Part shown: positions 3,097 through 26,311 of the stretch, piece by piece
Layout of the letters: each line of letters opens with the position of its first letter
How positions within the stretch are numbered: position 1 is the stretch's first letter
Virus record (IMG/VR): IMGVR_UViG_2690316321_000007
Strand: one strand, 5' to 3'
DNA length: 32,919 nucleotides
Source of the DNA: a virus
Lineage: Duplodnaviria; Heunggongvirae; Uroviricota; Caudoviricetes
Translations under genes and position numbers: made by a program
The notes under the pieces: model-generated
What the model saw: only the letters and a program-made list of their open reading frames with translations
What the model was told of the DNA's origin: nothing
Databases searched by the model: none

Positions 3097-3575
3097 TATT
3101 CCGCCCCCGTCATCCCCGTGAATCTGGTCGCCAGACTACCGGCCTTACCGATGAGCGACTCCGCCTGTTTACCGATATCGCCATAAAGCGCGGCCAGTGA
3201 TTCATCAACGCGGGTGAGCGACAGCGTAAAATCAATTTTTCGGGGTGTGCCGTCTGCAAAGAAAATACTCCCTGTTTCACTCACCCTGCTGATGACATAC
3301 ATGCCGTAAATCATGCCGGTGCCATCCAGCAACGGCCACGCCCGTCCCTCATCTGCCATCAGTCTGAGCGTGGTCATCGTCAGCTTGCCGCCGGTCAGTT
3401 CGGGATAAAGCACACCGGCAAGCGTGATGTTTTCCTCGCCCACACCGAGAAACTGAAAGGCATCCCGTTTACCGATACGGGAATTTGACGGCCAGCGATA
3501 ATCTGATTCACGCTGCATGGTCTGGTGTGGCAGCGTCTGGCGCATAAAAACAAACATACCTAACGCGAGCATCAT
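3096..3575 (-). CDS. U: Tail terminator protein U (159 aa)
   Basis: Length and position match P2 gpU; start overlaps the D stop. Confidence 0.85.
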   Translation of the reverse strand: MMLALGMFVFMRQTLPHQTMQRESDYRWPSNSRIGKRDAFQFLGVGEENITLAGVLYPELTGGKLTMTTLRLMADEGRAWPLLDGTGMIYGMYVISRVSETGSIFFADGTPRKIDFTLSLTRVDESLAALYGDIGKQAESLIGKAGSLATRFTGMTGAE

Positions 3576-3589
3576 TTTTCGTCACCTCC

Positions 3590-6037
3590 TTAACCGTCAT
3601 GCATCATGCTGGCACGGGCGCGCGCACGTTTATCCCGCTCGTATTTTTCGAGCGCATCCTGTAACTGGCGGTCGAGCTGAGTCCCCGGCGCAGTACCGCC
3701 CGTCAGACTGATGTGATATTCGTTTTTACTCTGGTCCACATAAGAGCGGCCAGCCAGTGCCGTAACCGGCTGATAAGCCTGATAGCCTGCATAAGAGCTG
3801 GTCGCCGGAATATAACCACCGGTGCCATACGTGGCGGCATGAGTTCTGGCGGCGGTCTGGTCAAGCGTGCCTGACTCTTTGTTGATAACACCGAGTTTTT
3901 CCAGTACCCAGTCAATACCGCTGCGCAGTTTGTTGAACGCATTAAGCGGCAGCATCAACGCGTCAGCCAGTGCCTGCCCGAACATGACGCCCGTATCACG
4001 GCAACGGTTCAGGGTGTCCTGGGTGGCTTTGACCGGGGCAATCAGGTTTTTAAACCACTGCCACGCGGCCTGTAACTTTTCGCCCAGCCAGTCAAACACC
4101 GGCTTAAGTGGCGTGAACAGTTCCCCCACCGGCGCAAATGCCGCTTTCAGCCCTTCAACCACACCGCCAAAGAATGCGCTGACAGGCTCCCAGTATTTAC
4201 GGATAAGTAACGCCCCGGCGACAATGGCGGCCACCACGGCCACAACCGGCCAGCTAATCGCCCCGATGGCCGTCATAACAGCACTGCCAACCGTCGTGAA
4301 GATTGCTCCCATTGCGCCTGCTGCCGCGATGATGGCATTGATGCCGGTGATAACCGGCCAGGCTACGAGGCCAATGGCACCGATGACACCAATCAGCGCC
4401 AGTGCAACACCGACAATGATGCCGATGGTTGACGCCAGTGATTTGTTTTTCTGTATCCAGCCGTCGAGTTTTAACACATACTTTGTGGCCGTCTGCGTGA
4501 GCTTACGCAGTGCGCCTTCCTGCTGGTCAAACAGGTCAGTCCCCACCGCCTCATAAGCGGACTGAAACTCCTTAAAGTCACCGCCGAGGTTGTCCTGCAT
4601 GATATTTACCAGCTCTGCAGTCTTCCCGTCTGAGGCTTTAAACGCAGCGGTCAGTTTGTCCAGCTTTCCGGTTGAGGCGGCAGTCATCAGCACAGCGGCG
4701 GCTGAGCTGGCCTCCTCCCCGAAAATGGTTTTCATGTATTCAGCCTGCTGGGCAGTACCGAGCCGGTTTTTCTCAAAACTGGCCTGCATTTCTTTCAGAA
4801 TGGTAAATACTGGTCGGGTGTTTCCCTTGCTGTCTGAGGTTTTCACACCAAGCTCTTTCAGTGCATCCCATGCTTTTCCCGCCGGTGCCTGCAGGCGGCT
4901 TAACACGGCACGGCTTCCCGTCCCCGCCATTGAACCAGTAATTTTTGCGTCATGCAGCGCCCCGACCATTGCGGCGGTTTCTTCAATGCTGACACCGGCA
5001 TTTTTTGCCACTGGTGCGGCATAGGTCAGCGCATCGCTCATACCGTCAAAATCGGCGGCGGTTTTGTTCATCGTCATGGAGAGAACATCCCCGATATGAG
5101 CGACCTTATCGTTTGAAAGCTGAAAGGCAGATTTCATCCCCATCAGCAGGGCGGCGTTTTCTTCCATCGTGCGGCGGTTCGCCAGCGCCATATTCAGTGT
5201 AACCGGCGTTGCCGCCTGAATGGCATCAACATCCCCACCGGCTTTCGCAATGATAATCTGCGCACCGGCTGCATCATCTGCCGAGGCTGCGGTATTGTCG
5301 CCGAGCCGGCGCGCCTGTTTGCGTAATGCGGCCATTTCGGTGGAGTCTTTTGCCACTCCGAGCACAGCCTGTAATTCTGAGTTTTTCTGCGCAAACTCAT
5401 AACCGGGCATCAGCAGCTTAACTCCGGCCATCGTTCCCGCAGCAGCAATCCCCACACCGGCAGCGCCCACTGAGGCCATATTTCCGGCCAGTTCCTTTCC
5501 TGCCTGATAACGCTGTTTGACTGCGTTAAGTTTTGCCTGTTGTGCACTGACACGCGCCAGCGCGTCACGCTGACGGTTAAGCTGTGCGGTGGTTTCACTG
5601 ATACGGTTTTTCAGTCCCTGCTCATCATGTGCAAGATTGCGGGTATTAATTCCCACAACGGCCAGTTCCCGCTGCTGGCGTTTAACGGAATCCGTCAGGC
5701 GGTTATATTTCACCTGTAAGTCCTCCGCCGCACGCTTTGCGGATTCCAGCACTTTCGCCTGAGCACGGGTCGGTCGTTCGGTATTTTTAAACTGTGTGGC
5801 AAGGGCTTCGGCTTCCTGCCGCGCCTTTTCAAGTGCATGACCAGTCACGGCGAGCTGTGCACTGGTCTTGCGGAACCCCTCAATACGGGATGCGTGACCG
5901 TTCAGCTCGCGCAGTGATTTTTGTGTTTCCCGGATATCCCCCGACAGCGACTTGCTCGCTGTACGGATGGATTTAAACGGGCGGGATGCCTGGTCAACAG
6001 CCCTGAGCAATACCTGTAATTTTACATTGTTACTCAT
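3590..6037 (-). CDS. T: Tail tape measure protein T (815 aa)
   Basis: Long Ala/Gly-rich protein with coiled-coil N-terminus and hydrophobic central segment; length equals P2 gpT as recalled. Confidence 0.9.
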   Translation of the reverse strand: MSNNVKLQVLLRAVDQASRPFKSIRTASKSLSGDIRETQKSLRELNGHASRIEGFRKTSAQLAVTGHALEKARQEAEALATQFKNTERPTRAQAKVLESAKRAAEDLQVKYNRLTDSVKRQQRELAVVGINTRNLAHDEQGLKNRISETTAQLNRQRDALARVSAQQAKLNAVKQRYQAGKELAGNMASVGAAGVGIAAAGTMAGVKLLMPGYEFAQKNSELQAVLGVAKDSTEMAALRKQARRLGDNTAASADDAAGAQIIIAKAGGDVDAIQAATPVTLNMALANRRTMEENAALLMGMKSAFQLSNDKVAHIGDVLSMTMNKTAADFDGMSDALTYAAPVAKNAGVSIEETAAMVGALHDAKITGSMAGTGSRAVLSRLQAPAGKAWDALKELGVKTSDSKGNTRPVFTILKEMQASFEKNRLGTAQQAEYMKTIFGEEASSAAAVLMTAASTGKLDKLTAAFKASDGKTAELVNIMQDNLGGDFKEFQSAYEAVGTDLFDQQEGALRKLTQTATKYVLKLDGWIQKNKSLASTIGIIVGVALALIGVIGAIGLVAWPVITGINAIIAAAGAMGAIFTTVGSAVMTAIGAISWPVVAVVAAIVAGALLIRKYWEPVSAFFGGVVEGLKAAFAPVGELFTPLKPVFDWLGEKLQAAWQWFKNLIAPVKATQDTLNRCRDTGVMFGQALADALMLPLNAFNKLRSGIDWVLEKLGVINKESGTLDQTAARTHAATYGTGGYIPATSSYAGYQAYQPVTALAGRSYVDQSKNEYHISLTGGTAPGTQLDRQLQDALEKYERDKRARARASMMHDG

Positions 6038-7044: not shown

Positions 7045-8235
7045 TTAATTGCTGTTAACCGAGGTGACCAGATTTGCCAGGTATTTATCGGTAATACGCT
7101 GGCGCAGGGTCAGGTTTTCAAGAGGAGGCACCGGTGTATAGTCGTAGTCGATATACAGTTTTCCGGCCTTGAGGGTTTCCGCATCGTTGGATTCTTCGCT
7201 GAACCAGCAGGTCGCATCCACGATATAGCCGTTTGTTTTCAGCTCACGGAATTTGGCATTGATGCCGTCAACGATGTCGCGAATCAGCGTTGCGGTGATG
7301 GGCTTGTCCACCGCCCACATGTGCGCCTCAGCCATCGTGTCGGCCAGCACCTGCGCGGTGCGGGTGTAGTTTTCAAAGAGGAACAGCGGGTCATCAGAGC
7401 AGGTACGGTTACCCCAGAATCGGAAACCGTCGCGGCGAATCAGCGTTGTGACGCCTGACTCGTTAAGCAGGTCAGCATCGGTGCCGGACTCCTGCAAATC
7501 CCAGAATACAGATGTGCTGATGCCGGTAACACCGTTTACCCCAACGTTGGACAGCGTTTTATGCCAGCCCTGCTCCTGGTCGATTTTAGCGCGCAGACCC
7601 AGCGCACGGGCGGTGGCATACGCGGTGGCGGTGGTGCTGCTGACCGTATCCCATGCGAGGAAATCCGGCCAGATGACCATCAGCTCACGCTGGCTGAAAT
7701 TCTGGCGGTAGGCTTTCACCTCGGAAATGGTTTTACAGCCCCATGCGCTGATATACCCGAAAGCGCGCAGCTTCTGACATACTGATGCCAGTGCAACCGC
7801 CACCTCTTTGGTGTCCAGTCCCGGCACGCCGAGAATACGCGGTTTAACACCGGTAACAGACTCCGCCGCCAGCAGGGCTTTCAGTCCGGTGTACTGACCG
7901 TTTTCGTCGGTGGTGCCAATGATATTGGAAACGGTCTGCGCGAGTTTCGTTTCCTCGTCGTCGCCGGTGCCGTCTTCCACGCGCACAACAACGGTGACCG
8001 GTTTTGACTGGTCAGCGATGGCCTGCAGCGACGCCGCCAGCGTGCCTTTTTTACCGGCCTTTGCAATTGCGCTCTGCACATTGGTAATCAGCACCGGTTT
8101 ATTGAGGGGGAAGGTTTCCGCATCCGCATCGCTGGCCATGCAGACCATGCCAACAATGGCGGTGGATACGGTGGAAATGACGCGGGTGCCGTCGTTAATC
8201 TCCAGCACCTGCACGCCGTGATGATAGTCACTCAT
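7045..8235 (-). CDS. FI: Contractile tail sheath protein FI (396 aa)
   Basis: Length and position match P2 gpFI; SD GGAG upstream of the ATG. Confidence 0.9.
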   Translation of the reverse strand: MSDYHHGVQVLEINDGTRVISTVSTAIVGMVCMASDADAETFPLNKPVLITNVQSAIAKAGKKGTLAASLQAIADQSKPVTVVVRVEDGTGDDEETKLAQTVSNIIGTTDENGQYTGLKALLAAESVTGVKPRILGVPGLDTKEVAVALASVCQKLRAFGYISAWGCKTISEVKAYRQNFSQRELMVIWPDFLAWDTVSSTTATAYATARALGLRAKIDQEQGWHKTLSNVGVNGVTGISTSVFWDLQESGTDADLLNESGVTTLIRRDGFRFWGNRTCSDDPLFLFENYTRTAQVLADTMAEAHMWAVDKPITATLIRDIVDGINAKFRELKTNGYIVDATCWFSEESNDAETLKAGKLYIDYDYTPVPPLENLTLRQRITDKYLANLVTSVNSN

Positions 8236-8326
8236 CCGTTTAACTCCGTGGTTAATGGGTGCAACTATTTTCTGTTGGGCAGTGCATGAGACGCTATTTG
8301 ACCTGGCTGGTCAGTGGATGAAACAA

Positions 8327-8357
8327 CAGATAAAGAAAATGCGGGCAATTCGCCCGC
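8327..8357 (-). terminator. Terminator-like hairpin upstream of FI (GCGGGC-aattc-GCCCGC, U-rich on minus strand)
   Basis: 6-bp GC stem followed on the minus strand by ATTTTCTTTA; lies between the cargo genes and the FI late promoter region. Confidence 0.45.
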
Positions 8358-8645
8358 CTGTCCTGATTTGTACACACTCATTTTCCGACTGACAATTTAC
8401 ATAGCCCAAAATCTATCAAATCTGACAGTCTGCTTTGAGTGAGAAGCGGAAGTTCAATGTGATAAAGCTCAGGAACATTGTCGTTGATGATGATAAAGAG
8501 GATCAGACTAACTAGCACTTCTCATCACGTTGATAAGGCATAGAAATCACAAACACTATTGTGAATATCGTTTTACTATAGTAAATTCAAGTAAGTTCTT
8601 TTCGTTCGTTATTACACAAAATAAAGTTCACTCTAAGGTTGAAAA

Positions 8646-9089
8646 ATGTTAGATATCAGAATGTCACGACCATCTGAAGCAGATGAGATCATACAAATCT
8701 GGAAGAGTTCAGTCGATGCTACCCACGACTTTCTTACAGGTCATGACCGACAAGAAATCGAAAAAGAAGTTGTCGGCTTTTTCTCAGAAACTCCTGTATG
8801 GGTTGCAACAAATCAGGATGACCAACCGCTAGGATTTATGTTTTTGCATGAGGGCCATCTGGAGGCACTTTTTGTAGCAGGCTCTGCTCGCGGACTTGGC
8901 GTCGGAAAACGTTTGATCTCTCATGCACTGGCGCTGCATCCAGAGCTAAGCGTTGATGTAAATGAACAAAACCAGCAGGCTGTAGGGTTTTATCAGCATA
9001 TGGGTTTTCAGGTATTAGGGCGTTCCGATCTGGATAATCAGGGAAGGCCATACCCCTTGTTGCATCTGAGAATGGCCAATAACATGTAA
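8646..9089 (+). CDS. GNAT-family N-acetyltransferase, YjaB-like (147 aa); accessory cargo
   Basis: Motifs IWKSSVDATHDFL, LGFMFL, VGKRLISHAL and NEQNQQAVGFYQHMGF resemble E. coli YjaB from memory; AT-rich upstream region; lies in the G-FI junction. Confidence 0.75.
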   Translation: MLDIRMSRPSEADEIIQIWKSSVDATHDFLTGHDRQEIEKEVVGFFSETPVWVATNQDDQPLGFMFLHEGHLEALFVAGSARGLGVGKRLISHALALHPELSVDVNEQNQQAVGFYQHMGFQVLGRSDLDNQGRPYPLLHLRMANNM

Positions 9090-9109
9090 CCAATGTGGCA
9101 GAGAAGATA

Positions 9110-9694
9110 TCATTGATTTTTTTGGCTAAAAGCCACGATGTAAGAACAGCTCTGCTCACTATCTGGATTGCTCATTTGGTACTCGCTTGCAAAGGTAAGG
9201 GCAAGACAGTCACCGGCACGTAAATGATGGGTCTGATTTTTGACTCGAAAATCAAGGCTACCACTCATCACCCAAAGCGTTTGCCCGGAAAGATGCTCAT
9301 TTGCGGAGGCGGGTATCGTCAGCTCACCCATTGCAGGAATTTCAACTTTGATCAGTTCCGGGCATGCCCCCGCAGGAGACAAAGACCAACGGGTGATGCC
9401 TGATTGCTCATCCGTCCAGTGCTGTTGCTGATGAGCAAAACGAACCAGGGAATTCTGATGTTGCTCAAGCTCTGCAAAGAGTTTAGATAGCGTTACATTC
9501 ATGGCGTTGGCCAGGCGGCTAAGGATAGTTGCACTAGGGCTGGAGATGCCTCGTTCAATCTTACTAATCATGGCCTGACTGACGCCCGATCGTTGAGCAA
9601 GCTCAGTTACAGTCAAATTGCGAGCCTTCCTGTGTTTAAGCAATAAACGTGCAATATCGCTATCTACTATCTGATTTTTAGATTTTTTATCCAT
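9110..9694 (-). CDS. XRE-family HTH transcriptional regulator with C-terminal cupin domain (194 aa); accessory cargo
   Basis: N-terminal LTVTELAQRSGVSQAMISKIERG helix-turn-helix; C-terminal half has cupin-like character. The 305-aa six-frame ORF was trimmed to the ATG at 9694 because the extension overlaps G and lacks a ribosome-binding site. Confidence 0.7.
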   Translation of the reverse strand: MDKKSKNQIVDSDIARLLLKHRKARNLTVTELAQRSGVSQAMISKIERGISSPSATILSRLANAMNVTLSKLFAELEQHQNSLVRFAHQQQHWTDEQSGITRWSLSPAGACPELIKVEIPAMGELTIPASANEHLSGQTLWVMSGSLDFRVKNQTHHLRAGDCLALTFASEYQMSNPDSEQSCSYIVAFSQKNQ

Positions 9695-9929
9695 TTCCGC
9701 CCTCTCTTTCACCAACCTGATTATGCCATTACATAAATTGGCCTGAAATAAATGATTTTGTAAGTCTGTAAATTCACTACTCCTAAGCGTGGTACTTCGT
9801 TTATACGCACCTATGACCTTAAAATATGAGTTGGTAAGCTTAACGTCCGCTTTTGGCACAGAGCGGACTGTCAGATTAGGCTTTACTCTGTGCCATAGAT
9901 ATGTAAGCTCACACCAGAGCTCATACAAC

Positions 9930-10457
9930 TTATTGCGGCATTTCCGGCCATTCAGGATTTGCAGGATCCACACGACTGACCAGAACGCTGTAACGCTCCC
10001 ATGCATCCAGTCGGCTACGCTCCTCATCTGTTGCCATATTCAGTCTGACCGCGCGCTCCAGCGGCAAAATCACGGATTCAGCATCTGCTAGAAGTCTGGC
10101 TTTCCGATTTTCTGCCTGCTGCTGCAATTCCTCCGCCGTATAAATTCGTTTAATCACTGTGCCGTCCTTAAACATCCAGTTCCCTGAAATGTCCGCCCGT
10201 CGGTTAGCAGTAATATCTGGCACTTCAACAACACTTAATCCATCTGGTCTGATAGCTGTCACATCCTTTTCCACATAGCGGATAATATTATCTTTGTCGT
10301 ACGCTATTTTTATCGTGTCATCAGCAAAATACTTTTGTTCTTCGTACCAGTTCTTACCATCTTCTGAAAAAAACCAGACAACATCAAAACCCTTTGTCAA
10401 TTGATATTGTTCAACCGTTTTTGGATTACCCGCTGTTATATTTATCAAATGCTGCAT
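9930..10457 (-). CDS. G: Tail fibre assembly chaperone G (175 aa)
   Basis: Length and position match P2 gpG. Confidence 0.85.
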
Positions 10458-10460
10458 AAA

Positions 10461-12590
10461 TTATACCTGTGCCACGTTATACCATGTCCCGTTAATGTAT
10501 TTCTGCACCGGTCTGTAATATATGCCACCAATGTTATCGGCAGAGTTTGAGCCGGTATCCTGAACAATAATGCCAGAATATACACACCCGGACGGTGCCT
10601 GATGTGTCCATGTCATGCCATTGTTCGCTGGTTTGTATGTGGCAGCACCACCAAGCCGGATATCCCGGACATAGCGGGAATCAAAGTTACCGTAATCCGA
10701 GGGATTAACACGCCCCGTAATATTTATGGTTTTATTACTTTGAATGCTACCGGAGACAAAGCGCATAACATGGACGTTATTAGCATAAACATCCAGATTA
10801 CCGTCGCCATTTTGTTTAAAGCCCGTGTCATTATCACCCAAAACAATCGAGTTACCGCCAAGATCACTGGATGTTCCGATGCCCAGTGCACCATTCAATT
10901 GACCTCCAGATAATGACAACGCCCCAACATCAGCAGCAGTCGGTTTAATGTGCGAACTGTAAATTACATATACAGTTCCATCTGTCAGGCCTGTTGGTTT
11001 ATTCGCTGTATAAGTTGGTGATGTATGAATCGTTACGCTGGCGTTACTGGTATAATCCCACTGAATATTAACACCTGTGGCGTAATTACCTATTTCAACA
11101 TAAACATCATAGGTATCACCGGATGTATTCACCCATGCAAAATTAGTAAATCCAACCGATGTCCGTCGCCATAACGCACCAGTAAGACCTTTTGGATTTC
11201 CATTTCCCGCACGAAGAACAAGTTCAGATATACCAGCCTGCATAGGGGAGTTAACATTATATCCAGCACCACCAATCAGGCTTATGTAAACCACGGAACT
11301 TGCCTGGGGCATGGTTACAGTTGCCAGCCTGAACCATCCTGTACCACCACTAAAAGACATGGTTGTTGAATTTGTTGCTCCAATATTGCGCAGGAATAAT
11401 CTTTTATCAGGAATATCCGCACCGTTCTGATCTTTCTGAAGACGTTTTTCAGCATTGTCATAGGCAGACTTCACCGCTTTTGGTGTTGCGGCCAGCGTTT
11501 CAGAATCACTGTTGGTGGCGCTACTGAGCTGAACAAGCCCTTTTCGCGCTGTGGTGGCATCCTGTGCAGTGTATTTCCCGTTAGCAAGGTCATACGCGAC
11601 CTTTACCGCCTTTGGCGTTGCCGCAAGCGTTTCAGAATCGCTGTTTGTGGCGCTACTGAGCTGGACAAGACCTTTTCGCGCCGTGGTGGCATCCTGTGCG
11701 GTATATTTCCCGTTAGCGAGGTCATATGCTGTCTTAACCGCCTTTGGCGTTGCGGCCAGCGTTTCAGAATCGCTGTTGGTGGCGCTACTTAGCTGGACAA
11801 GACCTTTTCGCGCGGTGGTGGCATCCTGTGCGGTATATTTCCCGTTAGCGAGGTCATATGCTGCCTTTACCGCCTTTGGCGTTGCCGCAAGCGTTTCAGA
11901 ATCGCTGTTGGTGGCGCTACTGAGCTGAACAAGGCCTTTTCGCGCTGTGGTGGCATCCTGCGCGGTATATTTCCCGTTAGCAAGATCATAAGCGGCCTTT
12001 ACCGCTTTCGGCGTTGCGGCCAGTGTTTCAGACGTGCTGTTGGTCGCACTGCTTAACTGAGTAAAACCTTTTGCGGTCAGCGAGGCGTCCGGGTGACGTC
12101 GTGACTGTTCGTGCTCTGCAATTTTGTCATCAACGTAATCCTGCGTCGCCATCACCGTTGTGGTGTCAATGGTCAGCGCCACTGAGGCCACACTGCTGAC
12201 GATGATGACCATGCGGCAGGTCTGCGAACGCCCTGAGCCTTCGGCAAGAGCTGGCTTATAACTTTCGGCCATGTTCGCCACGGCAATTAACGTTCCAGCA
12301 TCATCGTACAGGCCAAGCTCACGCATCCAGAAACCGCCCACCTCCGGCGGAATAACCAGCTCTGCGATAATATAATTACTGTTTCGTTTGTCCTGGCTGA
12401 TTTTGTTCAGCGCATGTCGCCAGACTTCATGGATAAGCCCGGTCTGTCCGGCATCCGGGACAGGCAATTTACCACCGCCATCCCCGACGGCCATCGTGGT
12501 AATGTTGACCTTCCGCCCTCCCGGTGCGGTTGCCGCTGCCAGCTTTGCTGCACCGGCAGTGGTGATAACGGTTTTGAATTTTGTGCTCAT
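10461..12590 (-). CDS. H: Tail fibre protein H (709 aa) with expanded internal repeat and divergent C-terminal region
   Basis: Conserved N-terminus and the C-terminal IVLGDNDTGFKQNGDG...QKYINGTWYNVAQV block; five copies of a 44-aa repeat in the middle. Confidence 0.85.
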   Translation of the reverse strand: MSTKFKTVITTAGAAKLAAATAPGGRKVNITTMAVGDGGGKLPVPDAGQTGLIHEVWRHALNKISQDKRNSNYIIAELVIPPEVGGFWMRELGLYDDAGTLIAVANMAESYKPALAEGSGRSQTCRMVIIVSSVASVALTIDTTTVMATQDYVDDKIAEHEQSRRHPDASLTAKGFTQLSSATNSTSETLAATPKAVKAAYDLANGKYTAQDATTARKGLVQLSSATNSDSETLAATPKAVKAAYDLANGKYTAQDATTARKGLVQLSSATNSDSETLAATPKAVKTAYDLANGKYTAQDATTARKGLVQLSSATNSDSETLAATPKAVKVAYDLANGKYTAQDATTARKGLVQLSSATNSDSETLAATPKAVKSAYDNAEKRLQKDQNGADIPDKRLFLRNIGATNSTTMSFSGGTGWFRLATVTMPQASSVVYISLIGGAGYNVNSPMQAGISELVLRAGNGNPKGLTGALWRRTSVGFTNFAWVNTSGDTYDVYVEIGNYATGVNIQWDYTSNASVTIHTSPTYTANKPTGLTDGTVYVIYSSHIKPTAADVGALSLSGGQLNGALGIGTSSDLGGNSIVLGDNDTGFKQNGDGNLDVYANNVHVMRFVSGSIQSNKTINITGRVNPSDYGNFDSRYVRDIRLGGAATYKPANNGMTWTHQAPSGCVYSGIIVQDTGSNSADNIGGIYYRPVQKYINGTWYNVAQV
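11459..12059. repeat. Tandem 132-bp (44-codon) repeat, about 4.5 copies, inside tail fibre gene H
   Basis: Unit encodes QLSSATNS(D/T)SETLAATPKAVKxAYDLANGKYTAQDATTARKGLV; the nucleotide period of 132 is visible directly in the sequence. Confidence 0.85.
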
Positions 12591-15099: not shown

Positions 15100-15885
15100 A
15101 TGGTCAGCTATAATGTGACTAATGTGTGGGGGCTAATCGTTTTTTTCCTTTGTAGCTTTGCAGTATTAGCATTTTTTAGCTTTGGTAAAAGTAACCTTAT
15201 GAGGCTTATTGCACATTATTTCAATTTTGGATATTCAGACAAAAAATTAAAAAGACTTGACCGCGAGTGGCGCGACATTCAACTATTTAAAATAATTAAC
15301 GGAATCAATGTATCAGGCATTGAAAATGTGAGAATGATACAGCAGGGACTGATTGATGGAAAACTAAAAACATCGTATTTTTTCCTTACTCGCATCTGGG
15401 GTGACATAACAAAACCACCACACATAATTAAAACAATAATTGTAATTCTGGCCAGTATTTTTTACATTCTCCTCGCATGTTACATACACAACGAACAATC
15501 CGTTATAGTAAGGGATGCCATAGGCATACCATATAAAAACATGATGTACTATGTTTATAGTGACAAAGTTCTTTTATCCTTCAAAAATAAAGCAGTTGAA
15601 TTTAATAAAACTTATAGCCTTGCCGATTGCAAGAGACTGCAAAACGTATTTATAAAAGACACACTTCCTGAGATCGCCTGCAATAAGCTCTTACAGCTAA
15701 ACGAGGAGGACTCCGAATGGTTAAGCCAGGAGATTAAAGATAATAACAGTCACAAAAAAGCATTGTTAATACTATCCCTCGTCTATTTCACTTCAGGTCT
15801 GGTTATATTCCTGTCATATACAAAATTCTTTTACGCCAATAAGAAGGTTTTAGAATACAAAGCATCAAATAAAAATCACTCATAA
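15100..15885 (+). CDS. Hypothetical membrane protein (261 aa, three predicted TM helices); AT-rich moron between V and S
   Basis: Strong SD AAGGAG 8 nt upstream; opposite strand to the flanking late genes; markedly AT-rich; hydrophobic segments near residues 9-28, 110-130 and 222-242; no domain I recognise. Same position as P2 orf30. Confidence 0.7.
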   Translation: MVSYNVTNVWGLIVFFLCSFAVLAFFSFGKSNLMRLIAHYFNFGYSDKKLKRLDREWRDIQLFKIINGINVSGIENVRMIQQGLIDGKLKTSYFFLTRIWGDITKPPHIIKTIIVILASIFYILLACYIHNEQSVIVRDAIGIPYKNMMYYVYSDKVLLSFKNKAVEFNKTYSLADCKRLQNVFIKDTLPEIACNKLLQLNEEDSEWLSQEIKDNNSHKKALLILSLVYFTSGLVIFLSYTKFFYANKKVLEYKASNKNHS

Positions 15886-25136: not shown

Positions 25137-25141
25137 ACATC

Positions 25142-25163
25142 GCCGCCTGCGGGCGGCTTTTTT
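25142..25163 (+). terminator. Rho-independent terminator after Q
   Basis: GCCGCC-tgcg-GGCGGC stem-loop followed by T6. Confidence 0.7.
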
Positions 25164-25305
25164 ACACCCCGTCATCACCCCCTCACACGCTCACCACCGC
25201 ACAAAACACCCAGCAGACACACCAACGCCTCAACGGGCAGACTAAGCGCCGTCACGACGCGCTGAGACGCTGAAAAAATAAAATCAGCACCACCGCCAGC
25301 GCGCA

Positions 25306-25324
25306 GTGCTTTCCCCGCCTCGCC
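25306..25324. other. cos site: 19-nt cohesive-end sequence
   Basis: GTGCTTTCCCCGCCTCGCC is the reverse complement of GGCGAGGCGGGGAAAGCAC, the P2 cohesive end as I recall it; lies about 170 bp after Q, as expected for the Q-proximal genome end. Confidence 0.65.
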
Positions 25325-25895
25325 CGCCCGCTTCATGTGGCGGTTTTAATGCAGTTGCATAGATACTATGGATCCGCACCAGCTCTGACCGCGAGCAGCT
25401 GGAACGGGCATCCCCGACGCATGCAAAAACATTCACTTGTTGCATGCACGGCTTATTAAATGACAAATCAACTTAAGCGTCACCGCAGCTCCCACAAAAA
25501 AACGTAACACCATGATTTTAGTGATATTTATGACTTTTTCAATTGCTTATTTAAGTCCGCCATATTGAAACCGTGCATTTTTTAGCCACCAATAACTTTA
25601 AAAAATTTACATTGCTTTCAATACCTTATCATCCGTAGTCCCTGCTTTTTACTTTGAGCTATATCAAAAAAAGCTCAAACATCCTTGATGCAAAACCAGT
25701 ATTACACAACATAAAATGCAACCAGAAACAACGACATACTATATGTTGTGTTGTTCAGGCTCTCTGTTCGGTGATATGCCAGATCACTTTGCGTTTAAAC
25801 AGAGCATTATTTCAGGGCAAGACTTCGCTAAATAGTAACTCCGCCTCAGAAGCGCATATATCGGCGGAAATTGCCCTCTGCTTACAGGAGGAGAT

Positions 25896-26009
25896 ATGAA
25901 GAAGTGCTATTACTGCATTCTCGTTCTGGCCCTCTTTGGCTATCCATATGGTAGTCCAAGTGGTTTGTCAGTAAACGTCAGTAATATCCATGTAAGTATT
26001 ATTCTTTAG
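25896..26009 (+). CDS. Candidate small hydrophobic protein (37 aa, MKKCYYCILVLALFGYPYGS...)
   Basis: ATG 4-5 nt after a strong SD AGGAGG; ends 11 nt before a strong terminator; lies in the AT-rich region at the P2 old/tin position. Could equally be the N-terminal stub of a lost gene. Confidence 0.35.
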   Translation: MKKCYYCILVLALFGYPYGSPSGLSVNVSNIHVSIIL

Positions 26010-26020
26010 TATGCTTCAAA

Positions 26021-26051
26021 CAAAAAAACCACCTGCCAGGGTGGTTTTTTT
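26021..26051. terminator. Bidirectional Rho-independent terminator (A7-CCACCTG..CAGGGTGG-T8)
   Basis: GC-rich hairpin flanked by an A-run and a T-run; ends both the small ORF (plus) and the early operon ending with A (minus). Confidence 0.7.
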
Positions 26052-26311
26052 GCGCCTGTCATCATTCCGATGAAAGACTAGCAAGACTTCGCTCGAGATG
26101 AATTATGCTTCGACAAAAGGTCACTCGCAATGGTTTTATTAGCCGAAATAGATGCTCTTTTATGACTCGAATCAAATAGCTACCTTAAATTACATGCTAG
26201 CGATTCAATACAATTTAGCCTTCTACTTCAGCATGCTATTGCTCCTCATCTGCCTTAGAGGCGCTCCGCATAATCCATTCAAAGGCATATAAAATCACGC
26301 TGCATTTTTAC

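Follow-up and report, generated by a model that had tools for sequence, protein, structure and literature searches.

Phages of the P2 type carry variable cargo between G, their tail-fibre assembly gene, and FI, which encodes the tail sheath, at a site known as "moron position 2" or the Z/fun site (PMC3573123; bioRxiv 10.1101/2024.10.15.618418). Two of its occupants, Z/fun, which blocks phage T5, and neaT, an acyltransferase_3 protein, are AT-rich, non-essential and equipped with their own promoters, and with neaT the site is known to hold cargo other than defence genes (PMC3573123). Escherichia coli YjaB is an experimentally supported lysine acetyltransferase that has been over-expressed in E. 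coli for substrate mapping, and its gene in strain K-12 is described as monocistronic (PMC6199490). PuuR and the Vibrio cholerae protein of structure 1Y9Q each join an N-terminal Cro/C1-type helix-turn-helix (HTH) to a C-terminal cupin barrel, and a yjaB and puuR pair on plasmids, designated "OVR-C", is one of four plasmid regions confined to onion-pathogenic Pantoea ananatis (Stice et al., 2018; PMC5817063). The locus considered here can be set beside all of these. It lies in a stretch of 32,919 nucleotides (nt) from a Caudoviricetes virus (IMG/VR record IMGVR_UViG_2690316321_000007; hereafter the window), which is a complete P2-like prophage adjoining a U32-peptidase gene, and whose G-FI gap of 1.7 kb holds exactly two genes, convergent and 20 nt apart, for a YjaB-family GNAT acetyltransferase and an XRE-family regulator with HTH and cupin domains. 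This cassette occupies the same site as Z/fun and neaT, and is related in sequence to neither.

An earlier reading of the window from its letters alone, below called the original prediction, took the pair for a candidate lysogenic-conversion or anti-phage module of prophage hotspots. The analysis described here leads elsewhere: a regulator and an acetyltransferase make up an unremarkable module of wide distribution, here carried into a cargo site of a prophage; it is probably hitch-hiking cargo and not an anti-phage system, and the hairpins that bracket it may be a more interesting feature than the genes themselves.

By every sequence test applied, the acetyltransferase belongs to the YjaB family. 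It scores 229.9 bits against the YjaB equivalog model NCBIfam PRK10514, above the curated cut-off of 134, and aligns from one terminus to the other with E. coli YjaB (PDB 2KCW; phmmer E = 5e-49), with which it shares its length of 147 amino acids (aa), the catalytic tyrosine and the acetyl-CoA loop. This loop, R82-G-L-G-V-G87 as read from the translation (motif R/Q-x-x-G-x-G/A), is intact, and Tyr116 aligns with YjaB Tyr117, whose replacement in the mutants Y117A and Y117F abolishes lysine-acetylation activity in vivo (PMC6199490). The cassette protein differs from YjaB in being a separate, horizontally mobile paralogue that is always paired with an XRE-cupin gene. PHROGs labels the two products just "acetyltransferase" and "transcriptional regulator".

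The regulator resembles PuuR and 1Y9Q in the order of its domains and the size of its cupin barrel, but forms a family of its own with conserved W93, D95, R102 and a G-D-C motif: it is just 22% identical to 1Y9Q and falls far outside the PuuR equivalog (44.5 bits against an NCBIfam cut-off of 211). Its N-terminus matches Pfam HTH_3 of the Cro/C1 type (61.7 bits, E = 7e-17) and its C-terminus matches Cupin_2 weakly (21.3 bits, under the 27.2 cut-off), the cupin being identified through an AlphaFold2 model (pLDDT 85) with five helices followed by a beta-barrel, for which Foldseek ranks 1Y9Q and HppE, both HTH-cupin proteins, best among solved structures, followed by single-domain cupins. Across an alignment of 35 regulator sequences, no variation is seen at W93, D95, R102, G161, D162, N176 and Y185, at least 90% of the sequences have C163, and the canonical cupin metal ligands (HxH...E...H) are not conserved. 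Because the barrel lacks the metal-binding His/Glu motif, yet keeps invariant residues, it looks like a ligand sensor and not an enzyme. On the minus strand the open reading frame (ORF) can be extended upstream to 10027 (305 aa), where it overlaps the end of gene G, and public gene calls in lambdoid contexts give a 254-aa version; the homologues, of 194-196 aa, all begin at the methionine of 9694 and, like the conservation of the ribosome-binding region, point to the 194-aa start as the true one. In PADLOC-DB 2.0 the acetyltransferase has no match to any defence model, and the regulator has generic matches of its HTH part alone (HTH_VI, RmrA, CapH and control proteins). Profile searches and the structural model hence bear out what had been read from the letters, namely a YjaB-like GNAT beside an XRE-HTH regulator with a cupin domain, and equally that the pair answers to no named defence system.

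Outside prophages, the pair is common. It occupies a fixed non-phage site, between nrdDG and an ArsP-family permease/phn operon, in the Serratia marcescens chromosomes of four assemblies (regulator 91% identical), lies in the Acinetobacter haemolyticus chromosome with an ars operon on one side and dusA on the other (regulator 60% identical), and is surrounded by metabolic genes in Klebsiella aerogenes. It is also found on large plasmids of Pantoea, where the P. agglomerans copy adjoins glutathione peroxidase and reductase genes and that of P. ananatis is OVR-C, which has the same two genes in DNA 87% identical, the same convergent layout and the same flanking hairpins. OVR-C differs in being plasmid-borne, within an array of bracketed cassettes, and in being known only as a presence/absence correlate. 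The gap between the two stop codons, 19-24 nt in Enterobacterales copies, widens to 63 nt in Acinetobacter, and the retention of the convergent layout in Serratia, Acinetobacter, K. aerogenes, Pantoea and E. coli argues that the two genes are functionally coupled.

A census of 5426 complete E. coli genomes adds further contexts. About 117 genomes, of the extraintestinal pathogenic (ExPEC) type, carry a full copy 80% identical to the present one beside sitABCD, at the e14/icd end, and about 280, mostly O157:H7, have an 80% copy with a truncated acetyltransferase gene. In this truncated O157:H7 copy the first ~340 nt of the gene are gone, an autotransporter gene is adjacent, and the regulator is apparently an orphan. 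Copies of the pair at least 95% identical occur in just 13 of the genomes and in three places: the P2 G-FI site, lambdoid prophages (phage Evi and others) between a DUF977 gene and hokD, and a chromosomal island with an iron-uptake cluster on one side and dynamin/patatin genes on the other. The notion of an anti-phage module specific to prophage hotspots finds no support in this distribution across Serratia, Acinetobacter and K. aerogenes, Pantoea plasmids and the sit/e14 locus of E. coli; that the pair would be a common chromosomal module outside prophages is what the original prediction had itself named as refuting it, and is what was found. The neighbours of the pair are suggestive of a role in stress or detoxification, though they are inconsistent between genomes. 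Arsenic-related neighbours occur in two distant genera, in Serratia (ArsP-family permease, locus L008, 7262-8317) and in Acinetobacter (arsC/arsR/ACR3/arsH, locus L012, 2594-5650), which could be coincidence or a hint as to the ligand or substrate.

How the pair might be controlled is suggested by the DNA in front of its genes. When the regions upstream of the acetyltransferase gene were aligned from six loci, from E. coli to Acinetobacter, a 33-nt block, CACTATTGTGAATTTAATTTCACTATAGTAAAT, proved nearly invariant within surrounding sequence that had diverged, and it is kept even in Acinetobacter, where the regulator is just 60% identical. It contains two operator-like palindromes (Table 1), with centres 20 bp apart, that lie over the likely -35 and -10 elements of the acetyltransferase promoter and whose consensus has no other match in the window (three overlapping matches against 0.34 expected). 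The conserved block upstream of the regulator gene is likely its own promoter, of the extended -10 kind (TGgCATAAT). From these patterns we infer a circuit in which the HTH-cupin regulator would bind, as dimers, the two operators overlapping the acetyltransferase promoter and keep the convergent gene off; a small molecule lodged in the metal-free cupin barrel would release the repressor; and the acetyltransferase would then be made and use acetyl-CoA to acetylate either a small compound containing an amine or, like E. coli YjaB, protein lysines.

We favour, with somewhat better than even confidence, the view that the cassette is a ligand-controlled acetyltransferase cargo of stress, detoxification or metabolic character with no dedicated anti-phage role, in which case it may help the lysogen at most indirectly. 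The other cargos found between the same hairpins support this view, since they include a WYL-HTH gene with an SDR, a MarR gene with oxidoreductases, a glyoxalase, and a HAD gene with a NUDIX. Against it must be set the convergent placement of the two genes, which is unusual in that a regulator and its local target are usually divergent; the fact that identical brackets also enclose genuine defence genes (TIR, DarT), a location thus compatible with defence; and the presence of the current high-identity E. coli copies mostly in prophages, which could reflect selection in a phage context.

Closest to this view, and overlapping with it, stands lysogenic conversion or host adaptation, which differs in claiming a niche-specific phenotype under selection, the acetyltransferase conferring, for example, tolerance of a toxic compound of plant or host origin and so acting as a fitness or virulence factor. 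The restriction of OVR-C to onion-pathogenic P. ananatis (PMC5817063) speaks for it, although that association is correlative and was seen for the region together with others. The 80% copy beside sitABCD in ExPEC-type genomes speaks for it too, as do neighbours such as the ArsP-family permease in Serratia, the ars operon in Acinetobacter and the glutathione peroxidase and reductase genes in P. agglomerans, but these neighbours vary from genome to genome. A precedent exists in neaT, a proven fitness gene at the same P2 site (PMC3573123), whereas the truncated acetyltransferase of the ~280 genomes (O157:H7) suggests dispensability. On balance we consider a selected niche-specific phenotype rather unlikely.

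Less probable still, indeed quite improbable in our estimation, is anti-phage defence or abortive infection, in which phage infection would free the acetyltransferase to modify a phage or host component, such as a charged tRNA or a phage protein. The setting invites this idea, as a P2 cargo hotspot and a lambdoid hotspot whose identically bracketed cassettes hold TIR and DarT/macrodomain genes, and XRE-type HTH proteins do control several defence systems, hence the generic PADLOC matches of the regulator. Yet the acetyltransferase finds no match in PADLOC and is closest to housekeeping YjaB and not to GNAT toxins, and the pair holds a fixed position in Serratia chromosomes and keeps company with metabolic genes elsewhere. 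A survey published in 2026 cuts both ways, since most of the untested P4-hotspot cargos of unknown function proved to defend, whereas its predictors flag just 15-32% of unknown P2 proteins as defensive (PMC13586616).

A type II toxin-antitoxin system stabilising the prophage, with the GNAT as a translation-blocking toxin and the HTH-cupin protein as its antitoxin, draws on the existence of GNAT toxins and of antitoxins with an XRE-type HTH (weak NCBIfam matches of the regulator to HipB and PezA, 20-33 bits), but is very improbable and was rejected on gene layout, which departs from that of TacAT / AtaRT / KacAT: the genes are convergent with separate promoters and form no operon, and no small upstream DUF1778/ribbon-helix-helix (RHH) ORF accompanies them, as had been recognised from the outset. 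The acetyltransferase also falls in the equivalog family of YjaB, which was over-expressed in E. coli for substrate mapping (PMC6199490). A genuine DUF1778-GNAT pair does occur in a bracketed plasmid array and, unlike the cassette pair, is co-directional and overlapping.

The insert itself is a self-contained cassette, now lodged at a non-essential site, G-FI, of a P2-like prophage, and it bears the marks of P2 cargo (a "moron") in lying between conserved G and FI, in being variable among P2-like phages, and in its atypical composition. The original prediction placed two convergent ORFs in this gap, and they lie where it put them; the Pfam assignments of the flanking genes as tail sheath and tail-fibre assembly confirm that this is the Z/fun-equivalent variable site, and the gap is indeed AT-rich, at 36-45% GC (0.36-0.43 at 8300-8900 and 0.40-0.43 at 9500-9950) against 55-59% (0.55-0.59) for the tail genes. 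It was right, too, that cargo is present, but it had taken the cargo to span 8236-9929, and this extent has to be reduced: the true cargo is 8419-9877 (1.46 kb), and the remaining 8236-8418 and 9878-9929 are conserved P2 backbone. Beside FI, a P2-like phage with other cargo aligns to query positions 1-215 and the Z region of P2-EC67 to 8206-8453, and the late promoter of the FI operon presumably lies within this FI-side segment. Coordinates are collected in Table 1.

Table 1. Features of the G-FI cassette and its surroundings (positions in the window)
Feature	Position	Strand	Basis or remark
YjaB-family GNAT N-acetyltransferase, 147 aa	8646..9089	+	NCBIfam PRK10514; Pfam Acetyltransf_10, Acetyltransf_7, Acetyltransf_1
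Gap separating the two convergent stop codons	9090..9109		20 nt
XRE-family HTH and metal-free cupin transcription regulator, 194 aa	9110..9694	-	HTH_3, AlphaFold2 model, homologue starts
Two near-palindromic operator-like sites, ACACTATTGTGA and TTACTATAGTAA	8553..8586	+	12 bp, consensus TCACTA.TAGTGA
Conserved block upstream of regulator gene, TTTATGTAATGGCATAATCAGG	9716..9737	-	Kept in E. coli, Pantoea and Serratia copies
Left arm, hairpin "B", GTCTGCT-TTGAGTGAGA-AGCGGAA	8419..8454; core 8428-8451	+	
Right arm, hairpin "A", GTCCGCT-TTTGGCACAG-AGCGGAC	9842..9877; core 9845-9868	-	
P2 backbone, FI to cargo	8236..8418	-	~95% identical in P2-like phages with other cargo
Terminator-like hairpin	8341-8357	-	Terminator scan
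P2 backbone, G to cargo	9878..9929	-	P2-EC67 Z region (different cargo) aligns to 9842-9959 with 95% identity
Tail sheath gene FI	7045-8235	-	Pfam Phage_sheath_1; then FII, E, T, U, D
Tail-fibre assembly gene G	9930-10457	-	Pfam Caudo_TAP, E = 2e-34
Tail fibre gene H	10461-12590	-	

Elsewhere in the prophage, the second classical cargo site of P2 (old/tin, flanked by Q and A), at 25137-26311, spans 1.2 kb without any ORF that reaches 90 aa, the longest being 81 aa, and may be an empty or decayed hotspot, something the 2026 survey describes as very rare (PMC13586616). The tail fibre gene H contains, at about 11420-12080 (minus strand), five tandem units of ~44 aa (…ATTARKGLVQLSSATNSDSETLAATPKAVKAAYDLANGKYTAQD…), and at 15100-15885 (plus strand), with baseplate genes to one side and tail-completion genes to the other, runs a 261-aa ORF oriented opposite to them; its match is PHROG 2407, of unknown function (E = 5e-149), it contains no Pfam domain, and the E. 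coli prophage nearest to this one likewise has it as a hypothetical protein.

The cassette is enclosed by an imperfect inverted repeat of 36 nt, its arms 81% complementary and each with a 24-nt hairpin as its core; the arms have two matches in the window and none in shuffled sequence. The two hairpins, B on the left and A on the right, have the stem GTCCGCT/AGCGGAC in common and differ in their loops (TGAGCGA-type on the left, TGGCAC-type on the right), and the right arm is predicted to fold as DNA at -9.1 kcal/mol (z = -2.0). Inverted repeats in the P2 Z region were reportedly described before, by Nilsson et al. in 2004 and by Odegrip et al. in 2006. The GenBank record of the P2-EC67 Z region (AJ512685) already annotates a "left/right inverted repeat", and this region, with a different gene inside, matches the window up to 8453 and then again from 9842, while copies of the cassette in other contexts start at 8422-8427 and stop at 9852-9913 by junction mapping. 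These mapped breaks in homology indicate that cargo is exchanged inside the arms and that the arms travel with the cassette. Of the two hairpins, A can be clearly recognised beside the pair both on Serratia chromosomes and on Pantoea plasmids, and B is intact in P. ananatis and degenerate in Serratia and P. agglomerans. The cassette's right hairpin harbours an IS110-family element in E. coli 2015C-4136CT1 (locus L007, 7427-8700; equivalent to window position 9852), which suggests that this hairpin is a target for such elements.

Other explanations of the arms were considered. A role as intrinsic terminators was rejected, the arms having no T-run and not being called by the terminator scan. Covariation was not found in the hairpin stems (14 double T-A changes against ~17 expected from single changes), so there is no evidence for conserved structure as opposed to conserved sequence, and an Rfam scan of 8150-10050 at a permissive E-value gave just chance snoRNA-like matches. 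As regards a MITE or mobile insertion cassette, inverted repeats are present, no direct repeat that would mark a target-site duplication is evident beside 8419 and 9877, and a text search of the literature with the literal hairpin sequences returned no match.

The same hairpins surround other cargo in quite different replicons. The P. ananatis plasmid carries a series of small modules (GNATs, NUDIX, ASCH, a metallophosphoesterase and the present pair), each enclosed in the order B...A, and at the module junctions A and B lie 15-20 nt apart as inverted doublets (locus L013, 3690-3750, 6630-6695 and 7745-7807). A 96-nt junction element occurs on 970 plasmids, mainly of Klebsiella (402), Enterobacter (250) and Pantoea (127), and single Pantoea plasmids hold as many as 12 copies; E. 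coli has a low hairpin copy number of 1-2 per genome. Exact matches to the A-type pattern turned up in genome stretches and in viral contigs, at least 120 of each. Among 120 such viral contigs, it lies at the P2 G/FI site in 33, at the lambdoid DUF977/DUF968 site in 48 and elsewhere in 39, and about three in four of the P2 and lambdoid contigs have hairpin B upstream; the bracketed cargos of this sample fall into at least 48 sequence clusters, which include TIR and DarT-HD/macrodomain genes besides the regulator-plus-enzyme or detoxification-type cargos listed above, and the GNAT pair is in none of the 120. Other cargos are bracketed likewise at the lambdoid hok-DUF977 site, where a search for the empty site found every site returned to be filled by other cargo or a 230-bp remnant, none being cleanly empty. 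The P2 site of phage pro147 (locus L142, 773-1747) and a lambdoid prophage (locus L139, 3361-4334; hairpins at 3303-3326 and 4311-4334) have a second cassette in common, 94.5% identical, with a 270-aa gene whose product lacks Pfam domains; the match stops precisely where hairpin A has its 3' end. In Alphaproteobacteria (Pseudolabrys, Xanthobacteraceae, Hyphomicrobiales, Methyloceanibacter), too, exact copies of the right-hairpin pattern, GTCCGCTNNTGGCACNNAGCGGAC, abound, usually with a second hairpin of identical stem ~17 nt downstream, and these doublets look like a REP/REPIN-type family (repetitive extragenic palindromes) spanning two proteobacterial classes.

We entertain the tentative proposal, without thinking it the likelier outcome, that the hairpins are functional ends, that is, recombination or mobilisation sites, of an unnamed class of portable cassette whose unrelated cargos, defence genes and others, swap between P2 G-FI, lambdoid hok-DUF977, and the plasmids and chromosomes of Enterobacterales. 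Movement could occur by homologous recombination on the ~36 nt of portable homology, or by a site-specific or single-strand transposition activity. Like REP/REPIN doublets, the pdif modules of Acinetobacter and integron attC sites, the brackets are short palindromic sites that delimit interchangeable modules; the module boundary, however, lies between two hairpins and not at a GTT core, and no integrase, RAYT or Xer site was identified, though no search was aimed at RAYT. An identity with integron attC sites, whose cores read RYYYAAC...GTTRRRY, was rejected on inconsistent cores (AAC/GTT triplets flank some copies only), the position of the boundary between hairpins, and the absence of any annotated integrase in the arrays inspected.

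For the study of phage-borne functions, this locus illustrates that location in a phage "defence hotspot" argues only weakly for a role in defence. The pair itself, as an uncharacterised YjaB paralogue with predicted self-regulation and a predicted operator, offers a tractable model for the signal and substrate of a poorly understood acetyltransferase family. The brackets have a wider bearing: according to the 2026 survey, how P2/P4 hotspots exchange cargo with other mobile elements has no known explanation, and transposable elements are almost absent there (PMC13586616). Repeats that mark cassettes in two unrelated prophage hotspots and on hundreds of plasmids are a concrete candidate for cargo exchange and, if they are recombination sites, would answer how P2-type hotspots trade cargo with unrelated mobile elements.

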